Virus record (IMG/VR): IMGVR_UViG_3300038466_000102
Span: 1-45,253 of that record
Length of the DNA: 45,253 nucleotides
Direction: 5' to 3' (one strand)
From: a virus
The translations under genes and the position numbers were made by a program. Position 1 is the stretch's first letter; every line of letters begins with the position of its first letter. The notes under the pieces were generated by a model that was not told the DNA's origin, searched no databases, and saw nothing but the letters and a program-made list of their open reading frames with translations. Below, one piece after another: positions 25,979 through 40,726 of the stretch.

Positions 25979-25986
25979 GGAGGTAT

Positions 25987-26094: not shown

Positions 26095-26103
26095 TCACTG
26101 CCT

Positions 26104-26259
26104 ATGATCTTAAAAATTGAGATTGAGATGACTCATTTAGCCGATGCCAGTGTCCGGTTGCAGCGGATTGCTAATCAGTTGGAGCATGGTTTTGTCAAAG
26201 GGTACGGGTGGGAGTTAGCAGATGAAGAGGAGGAGAATGATAAAAAGCCTAATGAGTGA
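26104..26259 (+). CDS. Hypothetical small acidic protein (51 aa)
   Basis: Hand translation with no internal stop; no clear SD. Confidence 0.3.
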   Translation: MILKIEIEMTHLADASVRLQRIANQLEHGFVKGYGWELADEEEENDKKPNE

Positions 26260-26614: not shown

Positions 26615-26766
26615 CCTTACTTTATATTTTAGCCTTATTGCCCCTAATTATCTTTTTTATTAGAATGAGGCCATATAAATATATTTTTGAGACGAGCGTG
26701 TTGGTTGTAATTTTTGCTTTACTATTTATCTACGGCCTTACGGGGTTGATGAAAGGTGGGATATGA
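26611..26766 (+). CDS. Small membrane protein (51 aa)
   Basis: Hand translation MTLLYILALLPLIIFFIRM...; ATGA overlaps at both ends. Confidence 0.45.
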   Translation: MTLLYILALLPLIIFFIRMRPYKYIFETSVLVVIFALLFIYGLTGLMKGGI

Positions 26767-26987
26767 AATTACAAATAGGTGATGTTGTCCGATTTGAATA
26801 CCGAGATACTTATGATAGAGAAACTGGCACAGGAGTAATTGTTGAGATTAAAGATAACCGTTATAAAGTGGCGTTGGTTGAACACGATAAAGATGGTTGG
26901 TCGTGGACTAATTATTGGAGTTGGGAAAGCGAAAATCGGGTTGAATATCTTAACAAAAAAGTTAAAGATTTGGATTTACAACTATGA
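26763..26987 (+). CDS. Hypothetical protein (74 aa)
   Basis: Track ORF; GGTGGG upstream. Confidence 0.6.
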   Translation: MKLQIGDVVRFEYRDTYDRETGTGVIVEIKDNRYKVALVEHDKDGWSWTNYWSWESENRVEYLNKKVKDLDLQL

Positions 26988-27226
26988 CCACTAACCTCCC
27001 CTCCAAAATCAGCGAGATAGTAATTGAATCATTTTATACTGAAGATGTAGATAAGGCTACCGCCCAACTGCTTGCTTTATTTGAGGAGGAGCTATTTGAT
27101 AGACTTTATCCTCACGCAAGCAAAGGGGCTAAAAAGTATATGTTAAAACATCAGCCATTGGAACATTACCCTATGTTTACATTTAAACGCACCAAGTTAG
27201 CCAAAGTTATCAAGGAGGAGAAATGA
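26984..27226 (+). CDS. Hypothetical protein (80 aa)
   Basis: Track ORF; ATGA coupling. Confidence 0.6.
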   Translation: MTTNLPSKISEIVIESFYTEDVDKATAQLLALFEEELFDRLYPHASKGAKKYMLKHQPLEHYPMFTFKRTKLAKVIKEEK

Positions 27227-27558
27227 GAGAAGTTAAGTTTAGGGCGTGGAATAAAAAAAGGAAAACAATGTCTGACTCTTTTGATTTAATTAGTCTTATG
27301 GCAGATAACGCCCTTGATAGAAAACCAGAAGATATAATTGAAGATTATATTATTCAACAATTCACTGGCCTCAAAGACCGCAATGGGGTTGAGATTTATG
27401 AGGGGGATATTATCCGTTGGCCTCAAAAAACAAAGGGTTTATGGTCTGACCAAAAAGGTAACGAAGAAGTCAAATGGCCGTTTATTTGTGGTAATGCTTA
27501 CCTTGGTGAAATTATCGGCAATGTTTACGAAAACCCAGAACTTATCAAGAAAGGATAA
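27223..27558 (+). CDS. YopX-family protein
   Basis: Track ORF. Contains KFRAWNKK...QFTGLKDRNGVEIYEGDII...IIGNVYENPELI, the YopX signature. Confidence 0.8.
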   Translation: MREVKFRAWNKKRKTMSDSFDLISLMADNALDRKPEDIIEDYIIQQFTGLKDRNGVEIYEGDIIRWPQKTKGLWSDQKGNEEVKWPFICGNAYLGEIIGNVYENPELIKKG

Positions 27559-27559
27559 T

Positions 27560-27691
27560 ATGGTAGACGAATATTTACTAGCAAGAATAAAATGGTTGTT
27601 AAAAGATTTTCAGGCAAACTGGCAAGACCCAGATATTGAAGAAAAAACCATTAAAAGGCTAATGGATTTAATTACGGAGGCCACTAAATGA
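27560..27691 (+). CDS. Hypothetical small protein (43 aa)
   Basis: In-frame ATG inside track ORF 27338..27691, directly after the YopX stop. Confidence 0.4.
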   Translation: MVDEYLLARIKWLLKDFQANWQDPDIEEKTIKRLMDLITEATK

Positions 27692-27849
27692 AACCCACCC
27701 AAGACAAAAGGAAGCTAGAAGCTATTAGGTTAATTAAAAACTGGATAGATGAAGTAGAAAATCCAGGTGATGATTATACTTGGGACGAATGTAGCGAAAT
27801 GGTCTTATATAGATTAAAAGAGTTATTAAAATATTTGGAGCTAAAATGA
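27688..27849 (+). CDS. Hypothetical small protein (53 aa)
   Basis: Hand translation; GGAGG upstream; ATGA overlaps at both ends. Confidence 0.45.
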   Translation: MKPTQDKRKLEAIRLIKNWIDEVENPGDDYTWDECSEMVLYRLKELLKYLELK

Positions 27850-28163
27850 CCCAACTGACTACTGACAGACAAATTAAATTCAGCCACCGCTATACTAAAA
27901 TGCCTCAAGATTTAAGTAATAGTTTCTTGCTTGATGTTTGGGTAAAAAACTTAGAGGATATGAGTGAGGGTTTTCTTAATTATGATACTCAATATTCCGG
28001 CGGTTGGTATCCCTTGCCAAAAAAAGGCAAGTTTTTAGTTTTATTTATCAGAACAGGTTATAGCATTTGGACAACAATTAGGCGTTGGATACCCCGCAAA
28101 GAGCAATATTACCGAGGTTTAATCGGTCAAGAAGTAAAAATAGTTATACAGGAGGATAAATGA
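27846..28163 (+). CDS. Hypothetical protein (105 aa)
   Basis: Track ORF; coupled to neighbours. Confidence 0.6.
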   Translation: MTQLTTDRQIKFSHRYTKMPQDLSNSFLLDVWVKNLEDMSEGFLNYDTQYSGGWYPLPKKGKFLVLFIRTGYSIWTTIRRWIPRKEQYYRGLIGQEVKIVIQEDK

Positions 28164-28903
28164 CTACTGACAAAGTGAAAGCCCCCCCAGTCTCCAGCGG
28201 AAGGAAGATTATCTTGGACTTGTGCGGTGGAACTGGTGCGTGGTCTAAGCCATTTTGGGAGTCGGGTAATTTTGAAGTTCACAACATTACTTTACCAAGA
28301 TATAACATTCTTGCTACTAAGTTTGATGACGATATTATTGTTTTCAGAAAAGACACTAACGATAATTATAGAACCAAGATTAAGGTAAAAGATGTCTATG
28401 GTATTCTGGCGGCTCCACCCTGTACAATGTTCAGCGATGCCCGGACAAATGCTAAAACACCAAGAGATTTAGAGGGAGGAATGAAACTGGTTCATAAATG
28501 TCTTGAAGTAATTTGGTATTGCCAATATTGGACTAAAACCGACCAGCAAAAATACCCGCCATTAAAGTTTTGGGCTTTAGAGAACCCTTGGTATGGCAGG
28601 TTAAAATGGTTTTTAGGTAATCCGAAGTTTGAGTTTAGTCCTTGGGAGTTTAGCGATGCTTATAAAAAACGCACCGCTATTTGGGGATATTTTAACGAGC
28701 CGACAAAAACCGTAACTGATATAAACCAAGTAATGACACAACAACAACAATTTCACAAGACCAACTCGCAAAAGTTGCCTAAGTTTGATTATATGAAGTC
28801 AAAAGATATTCACCCGGAAATGTTTGGTAAACTGAACAGGCAAGCAAGGCGTTCAATTACTCCGGCAGGTTTCGCCAAAGCATTTTATGAGGCTAACCTA
28901 TGA
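28160..28903 (+). CDS. C5-cytosine DNA methyltransferase-like protein
   Basis: Track ORF; GGAGGA upstream. Contains LDLCGGTG (motif I), AAPPCTMFS (PC motif IV) and ALENP (motif VI). It is short (247 aa). Confidence 0.55.
   Translation: MTTDKVKAPPVSSGRKIILDLCGGTGAWSKPFWESGNFEVHNITLPRYNILATKFDDDIIVFRKDTNDNYRTKIKVKDVYGILAAPPCTMFSDARTNAKTPRDLEGGMKLVHKCLEVIWYCQYWTKTDQQKYPPLKFWALENPWYGRLKWFLGNPKFEFSPWEFSDAYKKRTAIWGYFNEPTKTVTDINQVMTQQQQFHKTNSQKLPKFDYMKSKDIHPEMFGKLNRQARRSITPAGFAKAFYEANL
28183..28208 (+). repeat. GC-rich repeat copy A (CCCCCCAGTCTCCAGCGGAAGGAAGA)
   Basis: Identical to 29225-29250; encodes PPVSSGRK at the N-terminus of the MTase-like gene. Confidence 0.9.
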
Positions 28904-29136
28904 CTAACCCCCCAGTCTCCAGCTTTAATAAATTATCAACTGAGGAACTAAGCGATAGTCCAATAACAGCTTGGTTTCAAGGCTACAAATCGGGTTTTAA
29001 AGAAGGAGAAAAGAGAGGGTTTGAAAGTAGGTTTGCTATGATTTTAGAAAAGAAAGTTATGCAATTAAGAAAAAGGTCTAGGAAAGAAAAGAGTAAATTA
29101 TTAAATAAAAAAATGTGGTATCAATTTTGGATATGA
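28900..29136 (+). CDS. Hypothetical protein (78 aa)
   Basis: Track ORF; ATGA coupling. Confidence 0.6.
   Translation: MTNPPVSSFNKLSTEELSDSPITAWFQGYKSGFKEGEKRGFESRFAMILEKKVMQLRKRSRKEKSKLLNKKMWYQFWI
28904..28923 (+). repeat. GC-rich repeat copy B (CTAACCCCCCAGTCTCCAGC)
   Basis: Identical to 29221-29240; encodes NPPVSS at codons 3-8 of the gene. Confidence 0.9.
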
Positions 29137-29651
29137 TAACCTGTACGGTCTGTCACCCAAATTCACCAAAAGCTAATGGTTATTGTGCTGAACACTCCAC
29201 AAGTGGAAGTGGATATATCTCTAACCCCCCAGTCTCCAGCGGAAGGAAGAAGCTCTATTGTACCAAGCACAGTCTATTTCACGGGCAGAAATATTCTAGT
29301 TGTAAGCCACAACGGAAACCAGAACCTAGTGTTTCGGTTAAACAGAACAATTACTTTGATGGTGACAGAGATGGATTGGTAGAGTTGGTTAAGGGGCGGT
29401 GGTTTATGGCAGGCGAGGGAAGCCCAAAAGACCTTGAAACCTTTATCCACCACCTCTTAGAGGCCGACCACAAGGCTATTAGGGAGAAGGTGGGAGAAGA
29501 ACATATTGGCGTTGATATTATTAACTCAATAATAGATAAAGTTCCTCACATAGAAGATGATTTGGATTTTTACGATGATTACGAGGATATTACTGAAGGA
29601 ATAGATTTTTTGATTAGTAAAAAACTTGAGGATATTCTAAACAGCCTATGA
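29133..29651 (+). CDS. Hypothetical Cys-rich protein (172 aa)
   Basis: Track ORF 29115..29651. The ATG at 29133 forms an ATGA overlap with the upstream stop. Confidence 0.55.
   Translation: MITCTVCHPNSPKANGYCAEHSTSGSGYISNPPVSSGRKKLYCTKHSLFHGQKYSSCKPQRKPEPSVSVKQNNYFDGDRDGLVELVKGRWFMAGEGSPKDLETFIHHLLEADHKAIREKVGEEHIGVDIINSIIDKVPHIEDDLDFYDDYEDITEGIDFLISKKLEDILNSL
29221..29250 (+). repeat. GC-rich repeat copy C (CTAACCCCCCAGTCTCCAGCGGAAGGAAGA)
   Basis: Contains both copy A and copy B sequences; same reading frame (NPPVSSGRK). Confidence 0.9.
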
Positions 29652-29854
29652 TTATTAAAGCATTACTAAAACAATTTAGAGATAGATATGGGATTAAGCC
29701 ACCCTTGGAGGTCTTTATTAGTAAAGTCTATAAATCAGGACGGGAAGAAGTCCTAACCGAAGCGATTGCGATTTTTGATAAATATAAGAATGAACCGATG
29801 ACAGGGAATGTAGTGAATTTAGAGTTAAAGGGTTTAAGGAGGGACTATAAATGA
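29648..29854 (+). CDS. Hypothetical protein (68 aa)
   Basis: Track ORF; ATGA coupling. Confidence 0.55.
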   Translation: MIIKALLKQFRDRYGIKPPLEVFISKVYKSGREEVLTEAIAIFDKYKNEPMTGNVVNLELKGLRRDYK

Positions 29855-30108
29855 ACTTAGATTTTTGGAATAAAGGATTAGTAAAGAGTTTTACAATAAT
29901 TCCTACTAATTTGGGGGAGGAAAGTTGCCTATTAGATATATTTAGGGTATGCGGTCAACTAGATTGGACTAAGAAATATGTAAAAATTGATATGGCTGGT
30001 AAAAACTTAAAGATAAGCATTGACGAAATAGTAATCATGCCAAAATCTTACAAAAAGACCAAGAAATCAAAGGGGTGGATTGAAGGGGAAGCAGGAGGAA
30101 AATTATAA
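29851..30108 (+). CDS. Hypothetical protein (85 aa)
   Basis: Track ORF; AAGGAGGG upstream. Confidence 0.6.
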   Translation: MNLDFWNKGLVKSFTIIPTNLGEESCLLDIFRVCGQLDWTKKYVKIDMAGKNLKISIDEIVIMPKSYKKTKKSKGWIEGEAGGKL

Positions 30109-30317
30109 TGAAATTCATCCCCTGGTTTATTCTAACCGCCATCTTGTTTTTCTTACTAGGTTTGGGAATTGCCATAAAGACTATTCCTGAGCTGGTCTGC
30201 GAGAAAGACCCGTTAGCCGAGTTTAAGATGTGTGTAGAATTATGCAAAGTAGATGAGCAGGATTGGTGTTACTGGCAATGTAGCCCGCATCTCAATCCAC
30301 CGATTAGATTAATATGA
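30108..30317 (+). CDS. Small membrane protein (69 aa)
   Basis: Track ORF; AGGAGGA upstream; N-terminal hydrophobic helix. Confidence 0.6.
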   Translation: MKFIPWFILTAILFFLLGLGIAIKTIPELVCEKDPLAEFKMCVELCKVDEQDWCYWQCSPHLNPPIRLI

Positions 30318-30616
30318 AACGATCCCCAATTAAAAAAATAGGCAAGATCGGCCGGCTGAATATAAAAGCCCTAAGAGAGCTGACTAAAGTTTGGGAAACC
30401 AAGAGTATCCAATACTGTGAGGTGATGATTCTCCATGAGTGCAGTTGGGATTTGACGAATTGTCACCGGCATAAGCGGGTTTGGTATCGGGGAAAGCCGG
30501 AGTTGCTTTGGGATTTTAATCAAGTGATCCGGGTTTGTTCTGCTGCTCACAATTTATTGGAGTATAACAGGGAGTTATGCGAAGAGGTTTTTGTCAACTT
30601 AAGGGGGGAAGAATGA
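30314..30616 (+). CDS. Cys/His-rich nuclease-like protein (NinG/DUF1364-like layout)
   Basis: Track ORF; MKRSPIKK...C.V...EC......CHRHKR.....N...VC...H pattern. The family assignment is tentative. Confidence 0.35.
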   Translation: MKRSPIKKIGKIGRLNIKALRELTKVWETKSIQYCEVMILHECSWDLTNCHRHKRVWYRGKPELLWDFNQVIRVCSAAHNLLEYNRELCEEVFVNLRGEE

Positions 30617-30870
30617 AACCGCTTACTCTCATCCTCGCTTTTATCTTCCCCAAGCTTGTTAAGCCGGTCGTCTTTGTTGGTGACCAGGTCCGAATGGCCA
30701 ATGGTCCCGGCAGACCCATCAGCGAGGTGTTCCTGGTGATGCTGGTCCAGCCACCGCTGATCTACTTGCGCAATGTGTCCCGGCCGGGCTTGCAACAGGT
30801 GTTTGTTTATGGTTTAAATGACATTGTCAGATTAATAAATAAAGGGGAGATGGAGGTGCTACATGGCTAA
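30613..30870 (+). CDS. Hypothetical protein (85 aa)
   Basis: Track ORF 30577..30870. The ATG at 30613 forms an ATGA overlap. Confidence 0.5.
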   Translation: MKPLTLILAFIFPKLVKPVVFVGDQVRMANGPGRPISEVFLVMLVQPPLIYLRNVSRPGLQQVFVYGLNDIVRLINKGEMEVLHG

Positions 30871-31102
30871 AGGATTTGTGAAGAGAATTAGCAAGATAAC
30901 TACTGAGGTAATGGCCAAGCACGCTACAGATATAATTTTCAGGAAGCCGGTAATGTTTCCGGTCATGCCGGCCTATCATCCGATCAAGCTCTCCTGGTGG
31001 GAGAAGTGCTCTGATCGGTTAAGGGATCGGTGGCAGGATTTTAGGGAAAGGCTGGGCAGTAAAATAGCCGGAAGGGAGTTTGATGAAGGATATGAAGATT
31101 AA
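30863..31102 (+). CDS. Hypothetical protein (79 aa)
   Basis: Track ORF; GGAGGTG upstream. Confidence 0.6.
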   Translation: MAKGFVKRISKITTEVMAKHATDIIFRKPVMFPVMPAYHPIKLSWWEKCSDRLRDRWQDFRERLGSKIAGREFDEGYED

Positions 31103-31289
31103 TCTTTGGCGTGATCTGGCCATTGCTTTATTTGTCGGCCTAGTGGTTCTATTCCTATTCAGCTGGAATCTCCATAAGGATTATCTGGAGCTGTATCGGT
31201 CCGGCGTGCCGGTGAGCGAGGATGCGCGCCTGATGGAGTATTACAAGTCTATTATCTCTAATAAATGTCAGATAGTAGAAAGGCGGTGA
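31083..31289 (+). CDS. Small membrane protein (68 aa)
   Basis: Track ORF 31080..31289 (TTG start); ATG at 31083 is preferred; one hydrophobic helix. Confidence 0.5.
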   Translation: MKDMKINLWRDLAIALFVGLVVLFLFSWNLHKDYLELYRSGVPVSEDARLMEYYKSIISNKCQIVERR

Positions 31290-31296
31290 GAAATAA

Positions 31297-31524
31297 ATGA
31301 AGAAATATAATTTGCCAGAAATCCTGGTGATAGTGGTTTGCGTGATTGTTGTTTGGTTTATCGCTCAGGCGCTTTATTCGTCTTGGTCTAAAACCTATTC
31401 TACCAATCTTGAAATGACCTTGGATGAGGTTTGCGATCAGCATGGTGGTTATAGTTATTGGAGTGAAACTGAGCGTGCTGATCCGGAAGACTCGCCTCTG
31501 CCAGTGTTTAAGTGCGTGCTTTAA
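31297..31524 (+). CDS. Small membrane protein (75 aa)
   Basis: Track ORF; N-terminal hydrophobic helix. Confidence 0.55.
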   Translation: MKKYNLPEILVIVVCVIVVWFIAQALYSSWSKTYSTNLEMTLDEVCDQHGGYSYWSETERADPEDSPLPVFKCVL

Positions 31525-31562
31525 TTAAATTTGCCTAAAATTATTAACAGAGGAAAAAGACA
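31523..31562 (+). repeat. 40-nt direct repeat, copy 1 (AATTAAATTTGCCTAAAATTATTAACAGAGGAAAAAGACA)
   Basis: Identical to 31791-31830; intergenic; starts at the stop of the upstream gene. Confidence 0.95.
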
Positions 31563-31565
31563 ACT

Positions 31566-31796
31566 ATGTTCACTGCTAAAATCAACTCCTCAAAAGGCTG
31601 GTTGGTTGGAGGTAGAAAACAGGGTACTGATTGGCACGTCTTGCCGGTTAATGATCTTAAGGCCCATTGGCGGTCTGCCGGCTGCTGGTGCTGTCCCCGG
31701 GTGGAGGTCCAGTTAAACGACAGCCGGGTGATTGTGCATAATGCCGCTGATATGCGGGAGTTTGTCTATGAGGGGAAGAATAAGGTGAAGAATTAA
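31566..31796 (+). CDS. Hypothetical Cys-containing protein (76 aa) bracketed by the 40-nt repeats
   Basis: Track ORF. Confidence 0.6.
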   Translation: MFTAKINSSKGWLVGGRKQGTDWHVLPVNDLKAHWRSAGCWCCPRVEVQLNDSRVIVHNAADMREFVYEGKNKVKN

Positions 31797-31830
31797 ATTT
31801 GCCTAAAATTATTAACAGAGGAAAAAGACA
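31791..31830 (+). repeat. 40-nt direct repeat, copy 2
   Basis: Identical to 31523-31562. Confidence 0.95.
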
Positions 31831-31854
31831 CAACCGCCCAGTACGGAAATCAAA

Positions 31855-32268
31855 ATGAAATTAATTAAATTATCCTTGCCGCCACATTACACAAATAAAG
31901 AGGATTTGGAACCTTATTTTGCTATTGTTGATAATAATGTCTTTGAGTTTATTAATCAGTGGAAATGGCGTTTGTTTTATGGGTATGCGGTTAGGGCACG
32001 AGTATACCGGAAAGATAATGGTTGGGATACTGGAAGCCAGATAATTGGAATGCACGCGCAAATTCTTTTTCCTCGTGCCGGTATGGTCCCCCATCATATA
32101 AATGGAAACAAGCTAGATAATCGGTTGGCTAATTTGGAGTTGGTTTCGCTTAAGCTTAATAATCAGCTGAGGAATGCTGGTTTTTTAAAGCACCGGTATG
32201 CTATATATCCACCATTGAAAAACGTGAAGGTATACTATGTGGTCCCGGTTCCTAATCCAGTCACCTGA
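31855..32268 (+). CDS. Free-standing HNH endonuclease
   Basis: Track ORF; PHHINGNKLDNRLANLELV is the HNH_3 motif. Confidence 0.8.
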   Translation: MKLIKLSLPPHYTNKEDLEPYFAIVDNNVFEFINQWKWRLFYGYAVRARVYRKDNGWDTGSQIIGMHAQILFPRAGMVPHHINGNKLDNRLANLELVSLKLNNQLRNAGFLKHRYAIYPPLKNVKVYYVVPVPNPVT

Positions 32269-32332
32269 GCGATTAAGCGGCCTGCTGTAAGCAGTAGATA
32301 ACCCGAACTAAGGCGAGTTAGCCTGTTAGTCG

Positions 32333-32384
32333 GCTATCGGGTAATCTTGGTCTTGACAGGCTGTTTCCGGTTATGGTTAACTGG
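32333..32384 (+). repeat. 52-nt repeat copy 1 carrying a promoter-like module (GCTATCGGGT-N6-GGTCTTGACA...)
   Basis: Identical to 33717-33768. TTGACA at 32353-32358; the best -10 candidate is TGgTTAACT at 32374-32382. Confidence 0.85.
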
Positions 32385-32413
32385 CTATATTATTAAGTTT
32401 TAAAGGAGGGATT

Positions 32414-32698
32414 ATGCCTAAGTCAAAAGCTTTGGTCCCCTTTATTCGCGGTTATCAAATTAAGCGCCATGATTTTATAGTGGAGACGCCGGAAGTGTTG
32501 CACGTGTATTTTACCGGCCCGATCCATAATCTTAAGGAATTGCCGACCGGCTATCGTGGTTTAAGGTCAGCGTTGGTTAATTTGGATGATGTTCTTGCTG
32601 TCGGTTTGGATGTGCAGGAATATTGGGAAGTTAAAACCGGCAAGTTTCGTGGTTTGACTGTGCTTTGGCTAACGTGTGTGGCCGAGGAGGATTTATGA
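32414..32698 (+). CDS. Hypothetical protein (94 aa)
   Basis: Track ORF; AAGGAGGG upstream. Confidence 0.65.
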   Translation: MPKSKALVPFIRGYQIKRHDFIVETPEVLHVYFTGPIHNLKELPTGYRGLRSALVNLDDVLAVGLDVQEYWEVKTGKFRGLTVLWLTCVAEEDL

Positions 32699-32856
32699 AG
32701 AAATATAGAGTGATGGTTAAGCAGATTTATGTTTACGATGGTGTTCCGGCTAAGACTAAAGCCAAGGCAGTCCAAAAAGTGCTGGATATGGATTGGATTG
32801 GTCATGATGAATGTGAAGAGCAATTGGAAACCTCAGCGGAAATAGAGGAGCTATGA
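32695..32856 (+). CDS. Hypothetical small protein (53 aa)
   Basis: In-frame ATG within track ORF 32665..32856; ATGA overlap; GAGGAGG upstream. Confidence 0.5.
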   Translation: MKKYRVMVKQIYVYDGVPAKTKAKAVQKVLDMDWIGHDECEEQLETSAEIEEL

Positions 32857-33086
32857 TTACAATGCCGATTGTTTCTTTGGTGTCCAAGCTGATCCTGCAC
32901 CGGTCCCGGGCAGATTACCGGCTTTATTATTTCTTGCAGACCGAGGCTGGCCGGAGGATGTGCCATGAGTCGTTTGACGATGCTTACGCGGCGATCTATC
33001 GCTGGCGCGTGCTGTCGTTCCAGGCTAATGGCTTGTTGCACGGCGAGCCGACTATTAAAAGGACGGAGGCTTATGACGCTGGGTGA
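32853..33086 (+). CDS. Hypothetical protein (77 aa)
   Basis: Track ORF; GAGGAG upstream; ATGA overlap. Confidence 0.55.
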   Translation: MITMPIVSLVSKLILHRSRADYRLYYFLQTEAGRRMCHESFDDAYAAIYRWRVLSFQANGLLHGEPTIKRTEAYDAG

Positions 33087-33168
33087 CTTTGGGTTTGTTC
33101 TGCTTTGCTGGTCCATGGTGTGGCTGGTGATCTGCGGCATTACTTTTGTGGTGGAGCGCCGGCGGTAG
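33073..33168 (+). CDS. Very small membrane protein (31 aa)
   Basis: In-frame ATG in track ORF 32965..33168, preceded by GGAGG; sequence MTLGDFGFVLLCWSMVWLVICGITFVVERRR. Confidence 0.4.
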   Translation: MTLGDFGFVLLCWSMVWLVICGITFVVERRR

Positions 33169-33193
33169 CTTGTCCGGCGCTATCGGGTTTTTT
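33155..33193 (+). terminator. Intrinsic-terminator-like hairpin plus T-run
   Basis: AGCGCCGG (33155-33162) pairs with CCGGCGCT (33174-33181); ATCGGG then TTTTTT follows. Confidence 0.55.
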
Positions 33194-33228
33194 GGGTCTT
33201 GACATCCGGTTTTGGCTATGCCATCAAT
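33179..33228 (+). promoter_or_regulatory. Third, diverged copy of the promoter-like module (GCTATCGGGT-N6-GGTCTTGACA-T-CCGGTTTTGGCTA)
   Basis: It has the same 26-nt frame as the 52-nt repeats, with TTGACA at 33199-33204. The -10 is unclear. Confidence 0.45.
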
Positions 33229-33271
33229 ACAGACGTTATCAGTTATTCAACAGAGGGGGGGTGAGGATTTT

Positions 33272-33445
33272 ATGGCTTATGATTCTTTGATTACGGCGAC
33301 CGTTCGTATCCCCGGCACTGATGCCGGCGCTAAGGGTAAGGATGCGGCGGCCGATGTCCGGGCTGTGTTGCAGGTGCTGGTTGACTTGCATTATTGTGAG
33401 GCTGGGGATATTGATGTGACTATTAATACACCGGCGACTGCCTAG
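33272..33445 (+). CDS. Hypothetical small protein (57 aa)
   Basis: In-frame ATG in track ORF 33212..33445, preceded by GTGAGGA. Confidence 0.5.
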   Translation: MAYDSLITATVRIPGTDAGAKGKDAAADVRAVLQVLVDLHYCEAGDIDVTINTPATA

Positions 33446-33716
33446 TCGTTTGGGTCGGGGGACCATTGTGGTTTCCCGGCCGGACCGATCAGCGATTTTT
33501 GTCAGGTTTTCCACCTCCCAGAATATCACTTCTACCTGGTCGGTTCTTTTTGGTGGCTGTTTGGGTGCTCGGGTTTCGGCCGGTCACTATGTGTTTGGTC
33601 GTGCCGATCCGCTGTCACGCGTTGACAGGCGAGGTTGGTTTACCCGAGCATTACCCGTATTGGCTTTGCTCGCCGGCTTTTTTGGGTTTTCCGGTATGTG
33701 TTTATCTGGGTGTTTT
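33446..33716 (+). other. A-depleted, G+T-rich noncoding segment 1 (candidate structured RNA or cis element)
   Basis: About 28 A in 271 nt by hand count. A 12-bp hairpin at 33453-33481 has three G.U pairs that work only on the + strand RNA. GGCGAG/CTCGCC plus GGCTTTTTT lies at about 33629-33684. No SD-preceded ORF is present. Confidence 0.5.
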
Positions 33717-33768
33717 GCTATCGGGTAATCTTGGTCTTGACAGGCTGTTTCCGGTTATGGTTAACTGG
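33717..33768 (+). repeat. 52-nt repeat copy 2 carrying the promoter-like module
   Basis: Identical to 32333-32384; TTGACA at 33737-33742. Confidence 0.85.
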
Positions 33769-33797
33769 GGTAGTTATTAATTTTAGGAGGAGGGTTT

Positions 33798-34076
33798 ATG
33801 TCTGCTACTACTCAAAAGCCCAACCGGGATCCGCTGGTGGCTTGTTTGTCGCTTATTATTCAGGCCCATGAGTCGTTGGGTCGCTATTATGATGAGGCGG
33901 CTAAGGCCGGTTTATCCGGTGATCGGTTGGTCACTCTGACTAAAGGATTTATTGCCCTTGAGTTGGCTTCTTCCGGGCTTCGGTCGTTGCCTGACATTGA
34001 CGATTTGGTGTCGGCTCGCAGTCCGATGGTTGCTGAGCCTGGCCTTCGCGGATCAGTGAAACGGAGGTGGAATTAA
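33798..34076 (+). CDS. Hypothetical protein (92 aa)
   Basis: Track ORF; AGGAGGAGGG upstream. Confidence 0.65.
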   Translation: MSATTQKPNRDPLVACLSLIIQAHESLGRYYDEAAKAGLSGDRLVTLTKGFIALELASSGLRSLPDIDDLVSARSPMVAEPGLRGSVKRRWN

Positions 34077-34077
34077 T

Positions 34078-34179
34078 ATGGGTTACGAACATTATGGGTT
34101 TGTGCTTAAGTGGGACGATTTGCCGGAAATTCAGGAAATCCGGTCGTTCTTGGCTGGCCCGATTAAGGGGGTGAAATAA
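34078..34179 (+). CDS. Hypothetical small protein (33 aa)
   Basis: Hand translation MGYEHYGFVLKWDDLPEIQEIRSFLAGPIKGVK; GGAGGTGG upstream. Confidence 0.4.
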   Translation: MGYEHYGFVLKWDDLPEIQEIRSFLAGPIKGVK

Positions 34180-34181
34180 TT

Positions 34182-34412
34182 ATGGTTGACTACGAATTTT
34201 ACGGCGACTCCTCCATCCTCGGCTTGTCCGTGGACGGGTCTGCCGAGGTGTTTATTGATCTGGACGACGTGCGGAACGTTTCCCGGGCGGTTGACGATGA
34301 CGAGGTTAATCCGTCTATTCCGGTGGCCGTGTCGCCGGAGGATGTGGGCGGTTTGTTTGGAGCGCATGGATGTGCCGAGCAATGTCCGCGGCTTGAGGAG
34401 GAATTGGAGTAG
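34182..34412 (+). CDS. Highly acidic small protein (76 aa; 19 D/E versus 3 K/R)
   Basis: Track ORF; GGGGGTG upstream. Residues were counted by hand. Confidence 0.65.
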   Translation: MVDYEFYGDSSILGLSVDGSAEVFIDLDDVRNVSRAVDDDEVNPSIPVAVSPEDVGGLFGAHGCAEQCPRLEEELE

Positions 34413-34422
34413 CTGTTCTCTT

Positions 34423-34455
34423 GCCCGGTCACTCGTTTGGGTGGCCGGGCTTTTT
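34423..34455 (+). terminator. Intrinsic terminator (10-bp stem plus TTTTT)
   Basis: GCCCGGTCAC (34423-34432) pairs with GTGGCCGGGC (34441-34450), including one G.U, around an 8-nt loop. TTTTT follows at 34451-34455. Confidence 0.65.
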
Positions 34456-34800
34456 GATTTGTCCCTTGAGGTGGCGTTTACTTCTGTCGCCCCCGGGCCG
34501 GCGCTGGGCAGTTTTGTTCTGCTTGTTTTATTGCCGGTTTCACTAATTATAGGCTCGTCGCATAAGATATATTGTGCGACACTCCAGGGGTAGCACTTCT
34601 ACCTCTGTTCGCCCTTGCCTGTTGCTCTGCTTCTGTATCTGTTAATCCCAGGCTATACTATGTGCCTGGGCTTGCTGATCGTGCGTTAAGCGCTGCTACG
34701 CGCAGGCGCTAAATGGCTGTTTTGGCACACAAGGCTTGTTTAGCTTGTTTCTTGCTAACTATAGGGGTATTTGCTGTTGTTGTGTGTTTGTCGTCAGCGC
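34456..34800 (+). other. A-depleted, G+T-rich noncoding segment 2 with several hairpins and GCTTGTTT repeats
   Basis: Hairpins are CCCAGG/CCTGGG (about 34647-34670), GTCGCA/TGCGAC (about 34556-34579) and AGCGCTGC/GCAGgGCGCT (about 34688-34710). GCTTGTTT occurs at 34521, 34734 and 34743. No SD-preceded ORF is present. Confidence 0.5.
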
Positions 34801-34804
34801 GGCC

Positions 34805-34823
34805 GGGAGGGGGGGGTGGGGGG
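34805..34823 (+). other. G-tract GGGAGGGGGGGGTGGGGGG (G-quadruplex-capable)
   Basis: Read directly: G3-A-G8-T-G6 on the + strand, in noncoding sequence. Confidence 0.8.
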
Positions 34824-34963
34824 ACGAAAGAGTCTCTCCGAGTTTTAAGGTTCTTCTTTCCTAGACCGGCCTAGAATTTTTTTGAAAAGTTTTGGATCCT
34901 CTTTTGGCCTATAATAGGGGTCCCAATTTTTAAATTTTTTAGGAGAAAGTTTTAAGTTGGGGC

Positions 34964-34993
34964 TTGACTTAATAAATCGTTAAGTGGTATTCT
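34964..34993 (+). promoter_or_regulatory. Promoter (TTGACT-18 nt-TGgTATTCT) containing AATCGTTAAG
   Basis: TTGACT at 34964-34969, TG at 34985-34986, TATTCT at 34988-34993. The ATG at 35002 is 8 nt after the -10. Confidence 0.55.
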
Positions 34994-35001
34994 TGGGGTA
35001 T

Positions 35002-35172
35002 ATGCCTCGTAAAGTAATTAATCATTGTGCCTACTGCCAGAAGCAGGTGGACCGTAATGTTTTCTGCAGGAACTCCCACCGGGTGATGTTTTTCCTTAAG
35101 AAGAAAAAGCAGGAGGAGAAAATGGCGGCAGCGGTTCTAAGGAAGGCGCTTGCTTCTAAACCTAATGTCTAA
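35002..35172 (+). CDS. Small Zn-ribbon protein (TRASH/FCS-like) immediately upstream of terL
   Basis: In-frame ATG in track ORF 34984..35172. Contains CAYCQKQV...VFCRNSH and a basic tail. It overlaps the terL start. Confidence 0.55.
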   Translation: MPRKVINHCAYCQKQVDRNVFCRNSHRVMFFLKKKKQEEKMAAAVLRKALASKPNV

Positions 35173-36793
35173 CTCTACTTTCTCTCTTTCTCAGGCCGAG
35201 GCGTTTAATTCTCTTGCCTGGATACTTAATAATAAGATCGTCAATGAAAACGGTTCCTCCTTGGAGTTTGCCGACCATTCCTTTATGATTGATCCTTTCC
35301 TGGATAACTCTGAGCGCCAGGTAGCTGAGAAATGCTCGCAGATCGGCTGGTCAACCTTAGCCATTCTTAGAAGCTTCCATTTAGCCCGCTACGCCGGCGC
35401 TAATATCATTCACACCTTTCCCTCCCGTAATATGTCTAAAGACTTTGTCATCCCTAAAGTCAATCCGCTTATCCAAAGAAATCCGTCTATTAAGGCTATG
35501 GTCGGGACCGACTCCTTAAATCTTAAGCAGGTGGGGGACCGCTTTATCTACTACAGGGGCAGTTATGAGCAAACAGAGGCTATCAGTATCTCTGCCCATA
35601 TCCTGATTAATGATGAGTACGATCGTTCTAATCAAAAGGTCTTAAAGACTTACCGCAGCCGCTTAGATGACGCTAAACGTGAGCGGCCTGAGCTTGGCTG
35701 GGAGTGGCGCTTCTCCAACCCTTCCATCCCCGGTTATGGCGTGGATGAGCTATGGCAGAAGTCGGACCAAAAGCATTGGTTTGTTAAATGCTCGCATTGC
35801 AATCGGGACTGGTATTTGGACTTTCCAGAGAACATTAATTTTGATACTAAACAAAAGGTCTGTGATAAATGCCATAAGCCTTTTTCTAAGTATGACCTAA
35901 CCACCGGCCGTTGGGTTAACAAGGCCGAGTCTAAAATCTCCGGCTACTGGATTTCGCAGATGTTTGTTCCCTGGATCAGTGCCACTAAGATCATTGAGGA
36001 CTCTGAGGGTGATCCGGGTGTGTTCCATAACTTTACTTTAGGCAAACCCTTTATCAGCAAGGATGCTTCTGTTTCCCGGCAGGCGATCCTGCGCTGCATT
36101 GTGGCGACTACTAACTCCCGCGCCGGCGTAGCTATCGGCGTGGATAATGGTATCACTAAGCATTATGTTGTCGGCAACCGCACCGGCATTTTCCTGGTCG
36201 GGGAGACTAAAGATTGGGGGGTGATTGAAGATCTACGAAATAAGTTTAATGCTACCATGGTGATTGACGCTTTGCCTTACCCAAATGAACCGACCCGGAT
36301 GATGAATAAATACCGGGGCAAGGTTTTCCTTTCCTACTATCAGCCGGACAAGCGGGCGTCAGGCATGGTTTATTGGGATTATGACGACGGGATTGTCCGT
36401 TCGGACCGGACCAAAATAATTGACTTTGTGGTGGCAGAGATTAACAGTAATGATGTTAAGTTTAACCTGACTGCTAACGATCTGGATCAGTATATCTGGC
36501 ATTGGCAGCAGCTTTACCGGGTAGTGGAGCTTAACACCCAGGGTATCTTGAAACCTAAATGGAAATGTATTGAGGCTAGACCGGATCACTATGCTCATGC
36601 TACAGTGTTCTGGAGGCTTGCCTTAGAGCAGACGTTAGGGCAAGGCGGCGTAGTTGGTCCCACTGCTGCCATATCATTAAAAGACCGGCACCAGGAAGTA
36701 GGACCCGACTCTACCGTTCCTGCACTTAACTTGGAAGAGGTCGTCAGGCGGGCCTCGTTTGGTCCTAGCCACCGGTCCTGGAAAGTGCGATAA
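35150..36793 (+). CDS. terL: Terminase large subunit (GpA-like)
   Basis: Track ORF, 547 aa. Has the Walker-B-like ILINDEYD and an internal CSHCN...CDKCH zinc motif as in GpA-type terminases. A portal-sized gene follows. The start may be TTG 35150 or ATG 35165. Confidence 0.75.
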   Translation: MLLNLMSNSTFSLSQAEAFNSLAWILNNKIVNENGSSLEFADHSFMIDPFLDNSERQVAEKCSQIGWSTLAILRSFHLARYAGANIIHTFPSRNMSKDFVIPKVNPLIQRNPSIKAMVGTDSLNLKQVGDRFIYYRGSYEQTEAISISAHILINDEYDRSNQKVLKTYRSRLDDAKRERPELGWEWRFSNPSIPGYGVDELWQKSDQKHWFVKCSHCNRDWYLDFPENINFDTKQKVCDKCHKPFSKYDLTTGRWVNKAESKISGYWISQMFVPWISATKIIEDSEGDPGVFHNFTLGKPFISKDASVSRQAILRCIVATTNSRAGVAIGVDNGITKHYVVGNRTGIFLVGETKDWGVIEDLRNKFNATMVIDALPYPNEPTRMMNKYRGKVFLSYYQPDKRASGMVYWDYDDGIVRSDRTKIIDFVVAEINSNDVKFNLTANDLDQYIWHWQQLYRVVELNTQGILKPKWKCIEARPDHYAHATVFWRLALEQTLGQGGVVGPTAAISLKDRHQEVGPDSTVPALNLEEVVRRASFGPSHRSWKVR

Positions 36794-37062: not shown

Positions 37063-39087
37063 ATGCCAATACCTAACTTAACCAATACCGGCGACGAGAA
37101 TCAAAGCGGATTTGGGGATAACACGGAAGCTTTTTCTTTGGGGATGAAGGATGAGGATTTATTGGCAATGGTGAAAAGCAAAGTGACTGCTTCTACCGCT
37201 TTCTGGGATAAAACATATAATTTGAGTACGGTCCGGAAAAACAACCAAATGCGCTGGGAGAATAAAAATTTGGAAGTGTCGCCGGACGGAGGCGTGCTTT
37301 ATGACTTTCAAGTGCCTTACCGTGACAACCGCATCTTTACCTCGGTGGAGACGCTGATGGGGGCTCTGGCTTCTAAAATGCCTGAGCCGGTCGTGCTGGA
37401 GGCGTTTGATACTGATGCTTCGCGGGAGCTGGCTCAGAACTACGGCCAGGTGTTAATGCGTTGGGCGGACGAGGTTAATTTAGTCGGTAACTTTCAGCAG
37501 GCGATCCGGCATTTGCTGCAGGGTTACCGGGTAGGGATAATTAAATGGTGGTGGGACTTTTACGATGGGATCATGAAACCGGATGGTTCGTTTTATGGTA
37601 TGCCTAAAGTTAAGGTTTGCCAGCCGGATAGAGTGGTGATTGGTGATAAAGCGACTAACCCGGCAGATGTGCCTTTTATCGCTGAGTATATGTCCTCTAC
37701 TTTGGATGAGTTGCTGATCAGGTTTCCCAATAAAAAAGCCGAGTTGTTTATGCAGGCGGGGATTACTAACGGGGAGTATGACTGGAGATTGTTAAATAAG
37801 GAAGCGGATTATGTGGAAAGCTGGTTTACTTTTTATTCTGAGGGACAAAGGAAAGAAGGCGTTTGCTGGACCTTGGGCGACACGATTCTGCTGGACTCCG
37901 GTATTAATCCTTACTTTAACTATACTGAAGCCGAGGGGACTAATATTCATCCCCGGCCGATGAAGCCTTATGCTTTAATTAACTTCTTAAATACCGGCAA
38001 GTGGGCCTTGGATGATACTTCGCTGACTGAACAGGCGGCTACCCTGCAGGATGTCTTAGAGAAGCGTGGCCGACAGATCGTGGAGAATGCCGATCAGGCT
38101 AATTCAACGAAAGTGTTTAATGTCAATATGATTGACGCTACGGCGGTGGAGCGCTATGTCGGCGATCCGAATCAGTCATTAATGGTCAAAGGCAGCGTTA
38201 ATGAAGCTTTTAAACGTGAGCCCCCGGCCCTGCTGCCCTCTTATGTCTTGCAGGATAAGTACGATGCCCGGTCGGAGATTGACAATATTTTCGGCACTCA
38301 TGCGCCTTTGCGCGGAGAAAAGACTGCTTCGCCGACTTTAGGCCAGGAACAGTTATCGCAGCGCTCGGACCTGGGCCGGCTGGAGGTGCTGTCGCAGTCC
38401 TTGGAAGTTTCCGCTAATGCTATTTATGCCGGGGTGACGCAGCTATACAAGGTTTTCGGGGTAGAAGAGCATATGATGAAGTTTCTCGGTCCGGATGGCA
38501 AGACGGCGTTTTATAAGTTTTCCCGGGATAAGATTGAGGATGGGATTGAGATTAAGATTCAGCACGGATCCATGCGGCCGGATGATGTCACTATGGACAA
38601 GATGCAGGCAATGGAGATCGCCAAAATCGGCGGCCAGATTGACCCGCTGACTTTAGCGGAGAAGATGCATTGGCCTAAGGCCAGGGAGCTGGCTAAACGG
38701 ATGATCAGCTTTGCCTGGATGCCGGACCAATACATCAAGGAAGTGCTGGGGCAGGGAGCGGATGAAGGGCAGCAGGAAGTGATCCAGACTATCCAAAGGA
38801 TAAACTCCGGGCGGGCAGTAGAGGCTAAGACTGATGCTTCTAAAGACTATATTGCCGGCTACCGTTCTTATTTAAGTTCGCCGGCTTTCCAACAGTTGCC
38901 GCCACAGCTGCAGCAGCTTCACTTAGTTCATGTTAAGGCCACCTTGGCCGCTTCTAAAGGTTCACTCTCCGGCAAAAAGCCGGCTGGGCAGGACTTCGGC
39001 GAGGGCGAAGATAAACCAAATATTTTCAAAAAATTCCGTGATATTATTTTAAAGCAGCGTAGCGGGGCGAAGGAGGAGAATGCCTAA
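37063..39087 (+). CDS. Portal protein (by size and position)
   Basis: Track ORF, 674 aa, between terL and the scaffold/capsid genes. No specific motif was recognised. Confidence 0.6.
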   Translation: MPIPNLTNTGDENQSGFGDNTEAFSLGMKDEDLLAMVKSKVTASTAFWDKTYNLSTVRKNNQMRWENKNLEVSPDGGVLYDFQVPYRDNRIFTSVETLMGALASKMPEPVVLEAFDTDASRELAQNYGQVLMRWADEVNLVGNFQQAIRHLLQGYRVGIIKWWWDFYDGIMKPDGSFYGMPKVKVCQPDRVVIGDKATNPADVPFIAEYMSSTLDELLIRFPNKKAELFMQAGITNGEYDWRLLNKEADYVESWFTFYSEGQRKEGVCWTLGDTILLDSGINPYFNYTEAEGTNIHPRPMKPYALINFLNTGKWALDDTSLTEQAATLQDVLEKRGRQIVENADQANSTKVFNVNMIDATAVERYVGDPNQSLMVKGSVNEAFKREPPALLPSYVLQDKYDARSEIDNIFGTHAPLRGEKTASPTLGQEQLSQRSDLGRLEVLSQSLEVSANAIYAGVTQLYKVFGVEEHMMKFLGPDGKTAFYKFSRDKIEDGIEIKIQHGSMRPDDVTMDKMQAMEIAKIGGQIDPLTLAEKMHWPKARELAKRMISFAWMPDQYIKEVLGQGADEGQQEVIQTIQRINSGRAVEAKTDASKDYIAGYRSYLSSPAFQQLPPQLQQLHLVHVKATLAASKGSLSGKKPAGQDFGEGEDKPNIFKKFRDIILKQRSGAKEENA

Positions 39088-39562: not shown

Positions 39563-39592
39563 TTGACAAAATTAGACCGTTCGGAGTATTAT
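39563..39592 (+). promoter_or_regulatory. Sigma70-like promoter (TTGACA-18 nt-TATTAT) for the capsid gene
   Basis: TTGACA at 39563-39568 and TATTAT at 39587-39592, intergenic. Confidence 0.6.
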
Positions 39593-39658
39593 TGTTGTAA
39601 CTATCGTAGTGAGGTCATAAACCCTTTTATTAAATATTTGATAGTAAAGGGGTTTAAT

Positions 39659-40726
39659 ATGGATTTTACGACTAGAGTCACTTCACTCACTCAAGATAGA
39701 ATTTTACCCAAGGTTGTTGATACTGTTCTCGGCGATAACTTAATCACTTTCAGGATTCTTTCCAATGGCAAGAAATGGGACGGCCACCAGATGTCCAGGC
39801 CAGTTAAATACCAGAAATCCAATTTAGGCGGATCGTTCTCCGGTTTAGATACTCACTCTACTTCTACGGCACAGACCCGCGTCATGTCTACTTTTGATGT
39901 CCGCGGCTATGAACAGCCAGTGGCCATTCCCGGCATGGAGAAAGCGGTTAACCGCACTCCGGCCCAGGTGATGAGCCTGGTCAGGGTAGAGGTGGAATCA
40001 GCCCAGCAGGATATGATGGATGACATTGGGGGTTTGGCCTATGGTTTGGGTACAGGCAATAGCAATAAAGACTTTTTAGGGTTAGGCGCGGCCATTGATG
40101 ACGGCAGCGAAGTGGATACTTATGGGAATCTGTCCCGGACCACTTATACAACCTTAAAAGCTACCAGGACGGCTTCAGGCGGAACTTTCACTTTGACTAA
40201 ATTAGCGACTTTGCTGTCAGCGGTGTCTGCCGGATCGTCTTCAAGGATGCGACCGACTCTCTTGGTTTCCAATGAGACGGTCAGGGATTTGTATGAAGAG
40301 CTGTTAACTCCGATGGTCCGGGCTAACTATGAGTCTTTCGGGATGCCGACGGTGACCAGAACCTCAAGAGGCGTGGTTAGAGGCGCCGAGTTAGGGGTAG
40401 CAACCGGTTTTACGGCTTATACTTTTAGAGGAATCCCTTGGGTAGCTGATGAGAAATCAACGTCTCAGACTCTTTGGGCAATGAATGAAACCTTTATTGA
40501 TTGGTACGGCTTGAATGATCCGGACCTGCAGGCGATTAGCCTGGGAACAGGCGAGATTGACGGTCCGTATGCGGAAGCACCGAGCAAAAACGTCGGCTTC
40601 CAATGGACTGGCTTTATGCGGCCGATCAACCAATACGGCGAAGTAGCGCACATCTATTTATTAGGTAACATGGTTTGCTGGAATCCGATCCGTCAGGGTC
40701 GTTTAACCGGTATAACCACAGTCTAA
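39659..40726 (+). CDS. Major capsid protein (355 aa)
   Basis: In-frame ATG in track ORF 39563..40726, which begins inside the promoter. AAAGGGG lies upstream. The call rests on its own promoter and its size and position after the portal/scaffold genes. Confidence 0.6.
   Translation: MDFTTRVTSLTQDRILPKVVDTVLGDNLITFRILSNGKKWDGHQMSRPVKYQKSNLGGSFSGLDTHSTSTAQTRVMSTFDVRGYEQPVAIPGMEKAVNRTPAQVMSLVRVEVESAQQDMMDDIGGLAYGLGTGNSNKDFLGLGAAIDDGSEVDTYGNLSRTTYTTLKATRTASGGTFTLTKLATLLSAVSAGSSSRMRPTLLVSNETVRDLYEELLTPMVRANYESFGMPTVTRTSRGVVRGAELGVATGFTAYTFRGIPWVADEKSTSQTLWAMNETFIDWYGLNDPDLQAISLGTGEIDGPYAEAPSKNVGFQWTGFMRPINQYGEVAHIYLLGNMVCWNPIRQGRLTGITTV

Follow-up and report, generated by a model that had tools for sequence, protein, structure and literature searches.

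The question raised by this locus is what organises a run of very small genes of no recognised family that stand behind three copies of one promoter-like sequence. The locus, which we call the island (positions 32269-34963), lies in a 45,253-nucleotide (nt) stretch of DNA from an uncultivated virus (IMG/VR record IMGVR_UViG_3300038466_000102), the whole of which is referred to herein as the window. As an earlier note on this DNA had described, the island is situated between an HNH endonuclease gene (31855-32268) and a promoter-like site at 34964 that precedes the packaging gene terL. That note read the island as a set of insulated, independently driven mini-operons and found no described system that matched it. 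We give a probability of about 65% to the reading that the island is a hyperplastic accessory region of portable promoter/terminator cassettes, which would be transcribed by the host polymerase and would also serve as recombination patches. A matching type of locus has been described for T4-like phages, as discussed below.

The repeated module and the transcription units behind it

The 26-nt frame GCTATCGGGT-N6-GGTCTTGACA occurs three times on the + strand, at 32333, 33179, and 33717. At up to 3 mismatches no further match is present in the window, and 0 are expected by chance (100 shuffles), so the triplication that had been reported is real and exclusive to these three places. Modules 1 and 3 are identical over 52 nt (32333-32384 and 33717-33768) and continue into similar leaders, also as previously stated; the two copies reach 87% identity over 87 nt. 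The exact 9-mer box CTATCGGGT is confined to the modules within the window. Each module carries a perfect -35 box, with a Shine-Dalgarno sequence (SD) and an ATG 55-70 nt downstream; in module 1, an 18-nt spacer containing a small hairpin (CCGGTTA-TGGT-TAACTGG) separates the -35 box from the candidate -10 hexamer TTAACT (32377-32382). The 6-nt spacer upstream of the -35 box is T-rich (AATCTT, TTTTTG), and the box that precedes it is GC-rich. On the + strand, 8 of the 18 copies of TTGACA are intergenic, although intergenic DNA makes up only 6.4% of the genome (p = 7e-6), compared with 0 of 9 copies on the - strand. Near-consensus promoters (TTGACA-17-TAATAT) are found at 2279 and 19699, and TTGACA-type promoters also stand ahead of structural genes (2279, 34964, and 39563), so this promoter type is no marker of an early class.

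The same architecture is found in relatives, for which we use contig labels. Across the eight modules of the window and the close relatives L085 and L090, TATCGGGT and TTGACA are invariant, and spacers, flanks, and the -10 region vary; seven of the eight have the full box CTATCGGGT, and the remaining copy (in L090) reads TTATCGGGT. The close relative L091 has two further modules with the same box. Module 1 is 94% identical to module 1 of L085, which has a 17-nt spacer and likewise TTAACT as its hexamer, and a leader consensus, GGGGTAkTTATCAAt, is common to the modules of the window, L085, and L090. In the distant relatives L020, L003, L083, and L023, small genes are preceded by a T-rich run followed by GGnCTTGAC-17-TTAAnT, a leader, GGAGGTGA, and ATG. 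A TTAAnT hexamer 17 nt past TTGACA thus recurs in the clade (TTAACT in L085 module 1; TTAAAT in L083 and L003), and the corresponding hexamers are TTAAGT and TTTACT in L090 and TTAACT, ATTAAT, and TTAAAT in L020; we take TTAAnT as the probable -10 of the clade. One such promoter, TTGACA-17-TTAAAT, belongs to the p76 homolog of L083. The modules therefore have the look of genuine promoters, each serving a small transcription unit of its own. The earlier claim of independently driven mini-operons holds to this extent, given the -35 boxes, the SD spacing, the conservation, and the enrichment of TTGACA, but the strong expression that was part of it is unreadable from sequence, as is a place among the earliest transcripts.

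Three terminators with a hairpin and a T-run had also been proposed. The one at 34423-34455 is strongly predicted and has equivalents in L020 (fold z-score [z] of -5.8) and L003 (z = -4.4), whereas shuffled sequence folds just as well as those placed at 33155-33193 (z = -0.4) and 33629-33684 (z = +0.3). A terminator that had been overlooked is predicted directly after the p57 stop codon (Table 1); in L085 a hairpin of other sequence (z = -3.9) occupies the same place, indicating that the structure is conserved. At the end of operon 1 there is only a weak GC-rich hairpin (33155-33181), which may act as an attenuator. Between p31 and the next module, the hairpin is strong in L090 (z = -3.3) and weak in L085 (z = -0.9); the strong hairpin of L085 (z = -3.3) is located upstream of its module 1, where the window has no terminator. 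The operons can thus be called insulated in the case of operons 2 and 3, not in that of module 1.

Table 1. Features of the island and its downstream boundary (positions in the window)
Feature	Position	Strand	Description
Module 1	32333-32384	+	CTATCGGGT box at 32334-32342, T-rich spacer, -35 TTGACA at 32353-32358
Leader 1	32385-32413	+	SD AAGGAGGG
p94	32414-32698	+	First gene of operon 1, ORFan
p53	32695-32856	+	Small acidic protein
p77	32853-33086	+	Basic ORFan
p31	33073-33168	+	Mini-protein with a single predicted transmembrane helix; grand average of hydropathy 1.18
Weak GC-rich hairpin	33155-33181	+	End of operon 1, overlaps the start of module 2; -17.3 kcal/mol, z = -0.4
Module 2	33179-33228	+	GCTATCGGGT box, -35 TTGACA at 33199-33204, candidate -10 ATCAAT at 33223-33228, spacer 18 nt
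p57	33272-33445	+	Only gene of operon 2
Predicted terminator of operon 2	~33445-33501	+	Hairpin with 13-bp stem at ~33445-33489, T-run at 33496-33501; -30.8 kcal/mol, z = -4.1
Segment A	33502-33716	+	GT-rich noncoding spacer from terminator 2 to module 3
Module 3	33717-33768	+	-35 at 33737-33742, candidate -10 TTAACT at 33761-33766
p92	33798-34076	+	Member of a clade-wide small-protein family
p33	34078-34179	+	Resembles the C-terminal end of the p92 family (LPEIQEIRSFLAGPIKGVK)
p76	34182-34412	+	Very acidic, conserved GC-x3-CP motif; most widely conserved island gene
Predicted terminator of operon 3	34423-34455	+	12-bp stem at 34423-34450, then TTTTT; -24.7 kcal/mol, z = -5.9
Segment B	34456-34963	+	GT-rich noncoding block; hairpin GTCGCA-N11-GTGCGAC at 34557-34580 (z = -3.3); G-run at ~34805-34824
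Downstream promoter-like site	34964-34993	+	cTTGACT-18-TATTCT with TG, ahead of p62 and terL; island boundary

The eight open reading frames listed by the earlier note, encoding 94, 53, 77, and 31 amino acids (aa) behind module 1, 57 aa behind module 2, and 92, 33, and 76 aa behind module 3, are all present (herein p94, p53, p77, p31, p57, p92, p33, and p76), and each carries a GGAGG-type SD 4-8 nt ahead of its ATG. Among orthologs, the ratio of nonsynonymous to synonymous substitution rates (dN/dS) is 0.12-0.54, as expected under purifying selection. Because of these strong SDs and dN/dS values, the island genes can be taken to encode real proteins. As had been stated, none of the products belongs to a recognised family: Pfam and PHROGs gave no match for any of the eight, and each has 0-2 other clusters in 5.8 billion proteins (p94 has a single one, P0005, at 52% identity). 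Among 1.84 billion representatives, p92 matched only itself. The membrane mini-protein and the strongly acidic protein that had been predicted correspond to p31 and to p76, the latter with 19 D/E versus 3 K/R residues and an isoelectric point of 4.05.

Within the clade the products are conserved to different degrees. Orthologs of p53 in L085, L090, and L091 share 73-79% identity (dN/dS 0.18-0.54), those of p77 share 81-84% in L085, 89% in L091, and 36-39% in L090, and those of p31 in L085 and L090 share 77-83%. Homologs of p76 are found in L086 (85%), L083 (49%), L085 (47%), and L020 (39%), with dN/dS of 0.12-0.18. p92 is 43% identical to a 72-aa protein of L091 (E = 4e-13) and has links to L086_72 and L020_94. 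It matches the first 62 residues of the 72-aa protein that L091 and L086 have, with its own diverged copy of an LPxIxxL motif, and p33 matches the last 20 residues of the same protein; p33 is probably a remnant of recombination or of partial duplication.

Two leads to defence functions were considered and rejected. PADLOC matched p53 to Lamassu LmuA (E = 9e-5), a match that the orthologs fail to reproduce, and eight Csx1/CARF-HEPN models matched p77 (best E = 0.002), more weakly in the orthologs; both are probably chance matches, and searches of PDB sequences that followed these leads returned nothing. Defence and anti-defence models gave no reproducible match to the island proteins, and profiles of the p76 and p92 families found nothing below E = 0.4 among PDB sequences. 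AlphaFold2 models of p76 and p94 (predicted local distance difference test [pLDDT] scores of 56 and 58, respectively) were too poor for use, and Foldseek with the p94 model gave no match below E = 0.07.

Cassette exchange among relatives

A blastn search of the island against 50,697 phage records matched nothing. Among 80 terL relatives compared from IMG/VR, no DNA similarity to the island was found, and the only island genes recovered were p76, in L020, and p33, as a marginal match in L023. The exact 20-base module had no match in IMG/VR, and a 19-base frame had four in Joint Genome Institute metagenomes, three of them due to chance and one belonging to a true relative, L090.

Four close relatives, to which the few homologs among the 5.8 billion proteins led, retain the module, and the genes behind it differ. 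L085 is ~80% identical to the window over 24.5-34.2 kb, and its modules are the same three, in unchanged order; since it was assembled independently, misassembly at the repeat is ruled out. Along the island, identity to L085 is 0.77 for p53 and 0.85 for p77 and falls to 0.45 for p57 and 0.40 for p92, both of which are replaced in L085, and to 0.57 for p76. In L085, and for p57 in L091 as well, the p57 slot holds an unrelated 66-aa gene, and the slot of p92 together with p33 holds an unrelated 121-aa gene in L085. p94 is 100% identical to L085 over its first 47 nt and 57% identical over the remainder; in L090 its slot is taken by an unrelated 95-aa gene. L085 additionally has whole genes inserted at two gene junctions and a 105-nt insert bearing a terminator before module 1. 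L090 is without the cassette comprising module 2, p57, and segment A, and has in its place a strong terminator after p31, followed by a module with a leader of the module 3 type.

The comparison of L091 with L085 is the most precise, as these contigs are 96-97% identical outside the exchanges. L091 lacks the 57-aa gene of L085 in a precise indel, and its 72-aa gene of the p92 family occupies the slot of the 121-aa gene of L085; identity between the two is lost 7 nt past the ATG driven by module 3 and returns where the p76 gene has its SD. Exchange breakpoints thus coincide with cassette boundaries. The comparison that the earlier note had proposed accordingly bears out hypervariable gene content between conserved modules, with replacements, insertions, and losses in L085, L090, and L091. 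The island is not uniformly variable, as operon 3, with the p92 and p76 families, is kept clade-wide.

A 58-aa gene lies between the p94 slot and p53 in L085 (6576-6752), L090 (579-755, - strand), and L091 (95-271), and is not present in the window; it has a weak match to a MazE/AbrB-type antitoxin fold (E = 0.022). Pfam, PHROGs, and PADLOC gave nothing significant for the alternative cassette genes of L085, L020, L003, and L090.

Taken together, a cassette would consist of an optional upstream terminator hairpin, the CTATCGGGT box, a T-rich spacer, and GGTCTTGACA with the -35 box, followed by a stretch of 17-18 nt, often with a small hairpin in it, and a TTAACT-type -10. Next would come a leader common to the modules, with its strong SD, and one to four ORFans. 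The modules would most likely be read by a host RNA polymerase of the sigma-70 type, giving three short transcription units, of which operons 2 and 3 would stop at strong intrinsic terminators and operon 1 at a weak one. Use of the host polymerase is the default, because no RNA polymerase or sigma factor domain was found among the 39 window proteins scanned against Pfam. Since they are repeated within the genome and shared between related genomes, the modules and leaders may serve as homology patches, behind which genes would be replaced, inserted, deleted, and converted as the modules persist. In L085 and L091 the core of module 3 (TTGACA-17-TAGACT) is unlike that of module 1, with divergence downstream of the -35 box; the difference suggests that the perfect 52-nt identity in the window reflects lineage-specific conversion, probably one recent event. 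In short, the sequences establish the repeat and its selective conservation, that the genes are coding, the predicted terminators, and that exchanges break at the edges of cassettes; from these we infer promoter activity, use of the host polymerase, and recombination as the cause of the exchanges.

Several points weigh against this reading. The candidate -10 hexamers TTAACT and ATCAAT lack the canonical A at position 2, and a generic promoter scan did not call the modules. The hairpin within modules 1 and 3 is not significant by itself (z = -1.1). A plain promoter model gives no account of the role of the CTATCGGGT box, whose conservation exceeds that of the -10. The comparison is based on four short metagenomic contigs (L085, L090, L091, and L086, from the samples SRR13007705, Ga0100403, SRR12983662, and SRR15669518), and selection for chimeras that function, instead of a preference of recombination for the modules, could account in part for the breakpoints at start codons and SDs.

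Conserved core and genome setting

The region around the island differs in extent among relatives. A gene family represented in the window by w25109 (25109-25738) probably encodes the small terminase subunit, terS, as three of its five members match Terminase_2, with a best E of only 0.0038. The distance from terS to terL ranges from 2.8 kb (L020 and L010) through 5.3 kb (L003) and ~7 kb (L083) to 9.4 kb (the window), and the gap is filled with different small genes among the relatives. This variable distance suggests that the whole small-gene region, with the island in it, is an insert of expandable length lying between terS and terL. One unit is conserved in L020, L003, and L083, consisting of a promoter, p92-like and/or p76-like genes, a strong terminator, and a GT-rich noncoding block of 700-850 nt, which suggests that operon 3 with segment B is the ancestral core and that operons 1 and 2 are additions in the lineage of the window.

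The GT-rich block (500-850 nt) always follows the p92/p76-type operon (L020 3373-4168, L003 6067-6972, and L083 2482-3222). The hairpin GTCGCA-N11-GTGCGAC is common to the window, L020, L003, and L083, and the G-run together with GAAAGAG...TTTAAGGTTCTT (window ~34805-34860) is 75% identical in L083. A global alignment of the noncoding blocks of five phages showed them to be too diverged, with only short motifs in common. The L003 block contains four copies of the palindrome TTGTGTACACA. The GT-rich block could be a cos or pac site, an origin, or an RNA. Rfam, run on the entire window at the gathering threshold, gave no match, and on the island in E-value mode just a chance match to mir-1205 under the threshold.

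Identity of segment A to L085 is 61%, close to that seen at synonymous sites, and the stretch 33446-33716 that contains it folds with z = -3.5. A coding role for segment A was rejected, as L085 conserves none of its frames and stop codons are scarce in it for lack of A. The AT skew is -0.40 to -0.56 in the two noncoding segments, reaching -0.56 in 33446-33716. For the island as a whole the T-over-A skew is -0.275, with just 1 of 425 equal-sized genome windows more extreme, and it spans coding and noncoding parts alike. The island had been called more GC-rich than the early genes before it; its GC content does exceed that of the preceding DNA (0.503 versus 0.401 for 25.8-32.3 kb), yet 24 of the 425 windows are richer still.

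Upstream of the island, the block 25950-32268 has one promoter-like site (cTTGACA-17-TAAGCT at 25950) followed by ~30 tightly packed small genes, and no TTGACA site occurs between it and module 1. L085 also differs from the window in the genes of this block: 26.6-29.7 kb has been replaced, and w30314 and w31297 are missing. The HNH gene (Pfam HNH_3, E = 7e-9), the upstream neighbour of module 1, is missing in L085, which has an unrelated 77-aa gene and a terminator instead, and is kept in L090; it behaves as a mobile insertion. Elsewhere in the window there are genes for a large terminase of the lambda gpA type (terL, 35150-36793), a P22-like portal (37063-39087), a major head protein (39563-40726), a CHAP lysin (17523-18461), and a full-length GroEL-type chaperonin (21763-23352; Cpn60_TCP1, E = 8.5e-53). 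The sole recognisable part of a 1,987-aa protein (11010-16973) is a DNA-methyltransferase-like segment (residues 887-987). TerL is <30% identical to that of every cultured phage, and in 185,579 species genomes it has only two distant matches (35-37% identity), of which the one at 37% identity, in a metagenome-assembled genome of Candidatus Saccharibacteria, is the only hint to a host.

Alternative explanations and known systems

Any host-takeover or anti-defence role of the island proteins is something that we infer rather than observe, and the earlier note went further, placing an earliest-transcribed locus of this kind at the genome end beside the packaging site, so that it would enter the cell first. 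Small ORFans with strong SDs and promoters of their own are what such a locus would contain, and the extreme acidity of p76 recalls DNA-mimic anti-restriction proteins, which are extremely acidic. TerL is of the lambda gpA type and a possible cos-like G-rich block lies just upstream of it in segment B; by analogy with lambda, the island would be packaged last and injected first. The position at a genome end is less easily reconciled with the assembly, which is circular (~45.15 kb), its first ~100 nt reappearing at 45154-45253 and its start point being arbitrary. Moreover, the probable terS, near which a pac site would usually be expected, is 9.4 kb distant on the upstream side, and in L003 and L083 a gap of 3-5 kb, with other genes in it, separates terL from the homologous noncoding block. 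As described above, no island protein reproducibly matches defence or anti-defence models, and TTGACA promoters are not confined to the island. The statement that the island lies beside the packaging site and is the first DNA in is a conjecture, and the early-locus explanation as a whole is possible but doubtful in our view.

Regions of two phages, SPO1 and T7, illustrate what that explanation would mean. The host-takeover module of SPO1 comprises 24 small genes in the terminal redundancy (PMC10531801). It resembles the island in being a cluster of small genes of unknown ancestry and differs in that its terminal redundancy is mapped and its products have demonstrated host shut-off activity. 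The SPO1 genes form several short operons, whose host-type promoters and SDs are strong. In the early region of T7, the host promoters A1, A2, and A3 drive ocr and the other class I genes; it has in common with the island that three host-type promoters lie close together and that one of the products is small and very acidic, but the T7 promoters stand in tandem before one operon at a mapped genome end, and each promoter here has its own genes.

About equally tentative is the proposal that CTATCGGGT is an operator or activator site of a phage or host factor that assigns the three operons to one temporal class, in which case regulation would keep the repeat. Unlike the -10, the box shows no variation among the modules of the window, L085, and L091 (one L090 copy reads TTATCGGGT), and it is found nowhere but in the modules. 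In L003 and L023, CTATnGG boxes lie 9-10 nt from TTGAC, compared with 19 nt here, a difference of one helical turn; this shift, together with the stronger conservation of the box than of the -10, suggests a protein-binding site. The signature is also strand-specific, with 11 occurrences on the + strand and 1 on the - strand, the chance expectation being ~2.5. Against this, no DNA-binding protein can be assigned, the box is non-palindromic, and the promoters of L020 and L083 are without it. The proposal is compatible with promoter/terminator cassettes and would be an add-on to them rather than an alternative. A broader version that we consider rather unlikely has CTATCGGGT, one helical turn upstream of the -35 box, as the site of a regulator that would define an expression class for a swap-in/swap-out terS-terL locus, adds the clade-conserved p92 family and p76 with its GC-x3-CP motif as a new anti-restriction or host-takeover system in an uncultivated host (possibly of the candidate phyla radiation), and counts the GT-rich block as belonging to that functional unit, whether as an origin, a structured RNA, or an end of the genome.

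We regard it as improbable that the cassettes are morons, expressed from a repressed prophage to the benefit of the host. Morons of the lambdoid phages HK97 and HK022 are defined by expression from the repressed prophage (Cumby et al. 2012, PMC3594210), and they, like the cassettes, are independent units with their own promoter and terminator, a GC composition unlike that of their neighbours, and absence from related genomes, so that the island would fit that definition in these respects. No integrase, repressor, or other lysogeny domain was found among the proteins scanned, however, and no integrated relative in 185,579 species genomes; all window genes are on the + strand; and the units are clustered in tandem behind one shared, repeated module instead of being single insertions between late genes.

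It is just as improbable that the modules are promoters of a phage-encoded sigma factor or RNA polymerase, the TTGACA being coincidental. The 26-nt frame is conserved far past a plain -35 box, in the manner of phage-specific promoters, and the -10 is non-canonical, but Pfam found no RNA polymerase, sigma factor, or integrase domain in 39 window proteins (many of which have no Pfam match at all), and the -35 box is a perfect sigma-70 consensus shared with other promoters of the genome and the clade. Least credible is a repeat left behind neutrally by a recent duplication, or created during assembly where a k-mer recurs, since the 100% identity of modules 1 and 3 over 52 nt, near the assembler k-mer length, is outweighed by the same module order in the independent assemblies L085, L090, and L091 and by selective conservation, with box and -35 invariant and their surroundings diverging, and the relatives have largely refuted it already.

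The reading of the island as a set of portable promoter/terminator cassettes is the one for which a described system provides a model, contrary to the earlier impression that none matches; the morons and the SPO1 module are further close analogues. Promoter-early stem-loops (PeSLs) of T4-like phages are composite promoter/terminator cassettes that flank ORFans and mediate their shuffling (Arbiol et al. 2010, PMC2839356; Comeau et al. 2014, PMC4122927), with the stem-loop placed either between -35 and -10 or upstream of the promoter (PMC2839356, PMC4122927). The island shares with them a repeated motif of a promoter, here a putative one of the sigma-70 type, and a stem-loop, followed by an SD and a start codon; concentration of the motif directly upstream of ORFans in a hyperplastic region (here three copies in 32.3-33.8 kb); and indels and replacements between close relatives that are bounded by the motifs. 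Putative stem-loops with T-runs are present at ~33445-33501 and 34423-34455, and upstream of modules in L085 and L090. All PeSL features that were compared appear to recur in the island except a canonical -10 and an AT-rich upstream tract.

The differences are that the phage of the window is unrelated, uncultivated, podovirus-like, and ~45 kb in size; that it has three modules rather than about fifty; that a conserved GC-rich box (CTATCGGGT), absent from PeSLs, is present and the upstream tract is T-rich; and that the -10 is non-canonical. Promoter and terminator activity and mini-circles have been studied for PeSLs with reporter assays and PCR on phage DNA (PMC2839356); for the modules described here such activities are putative, and recombination between modules 1 and 3 would be predicted to give a circle or a deletion of 1,384 bp.

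The finding does not overturn current understanding; the pattern has already been described for T4-like phages. It offers a natural example outside that group of conserved promoter/terminator modules that would serve as docking points for gene cassettes, and at this locus the probable terS and terL stand 2.8 to 9.4 kb apart, with variable DNA between them. Should loci of this kind prove common among uncultivated phages, their modules would be anchors with which fast-turnover candidate host-takeover and anti-defence genes could be harvested from metagenomes.

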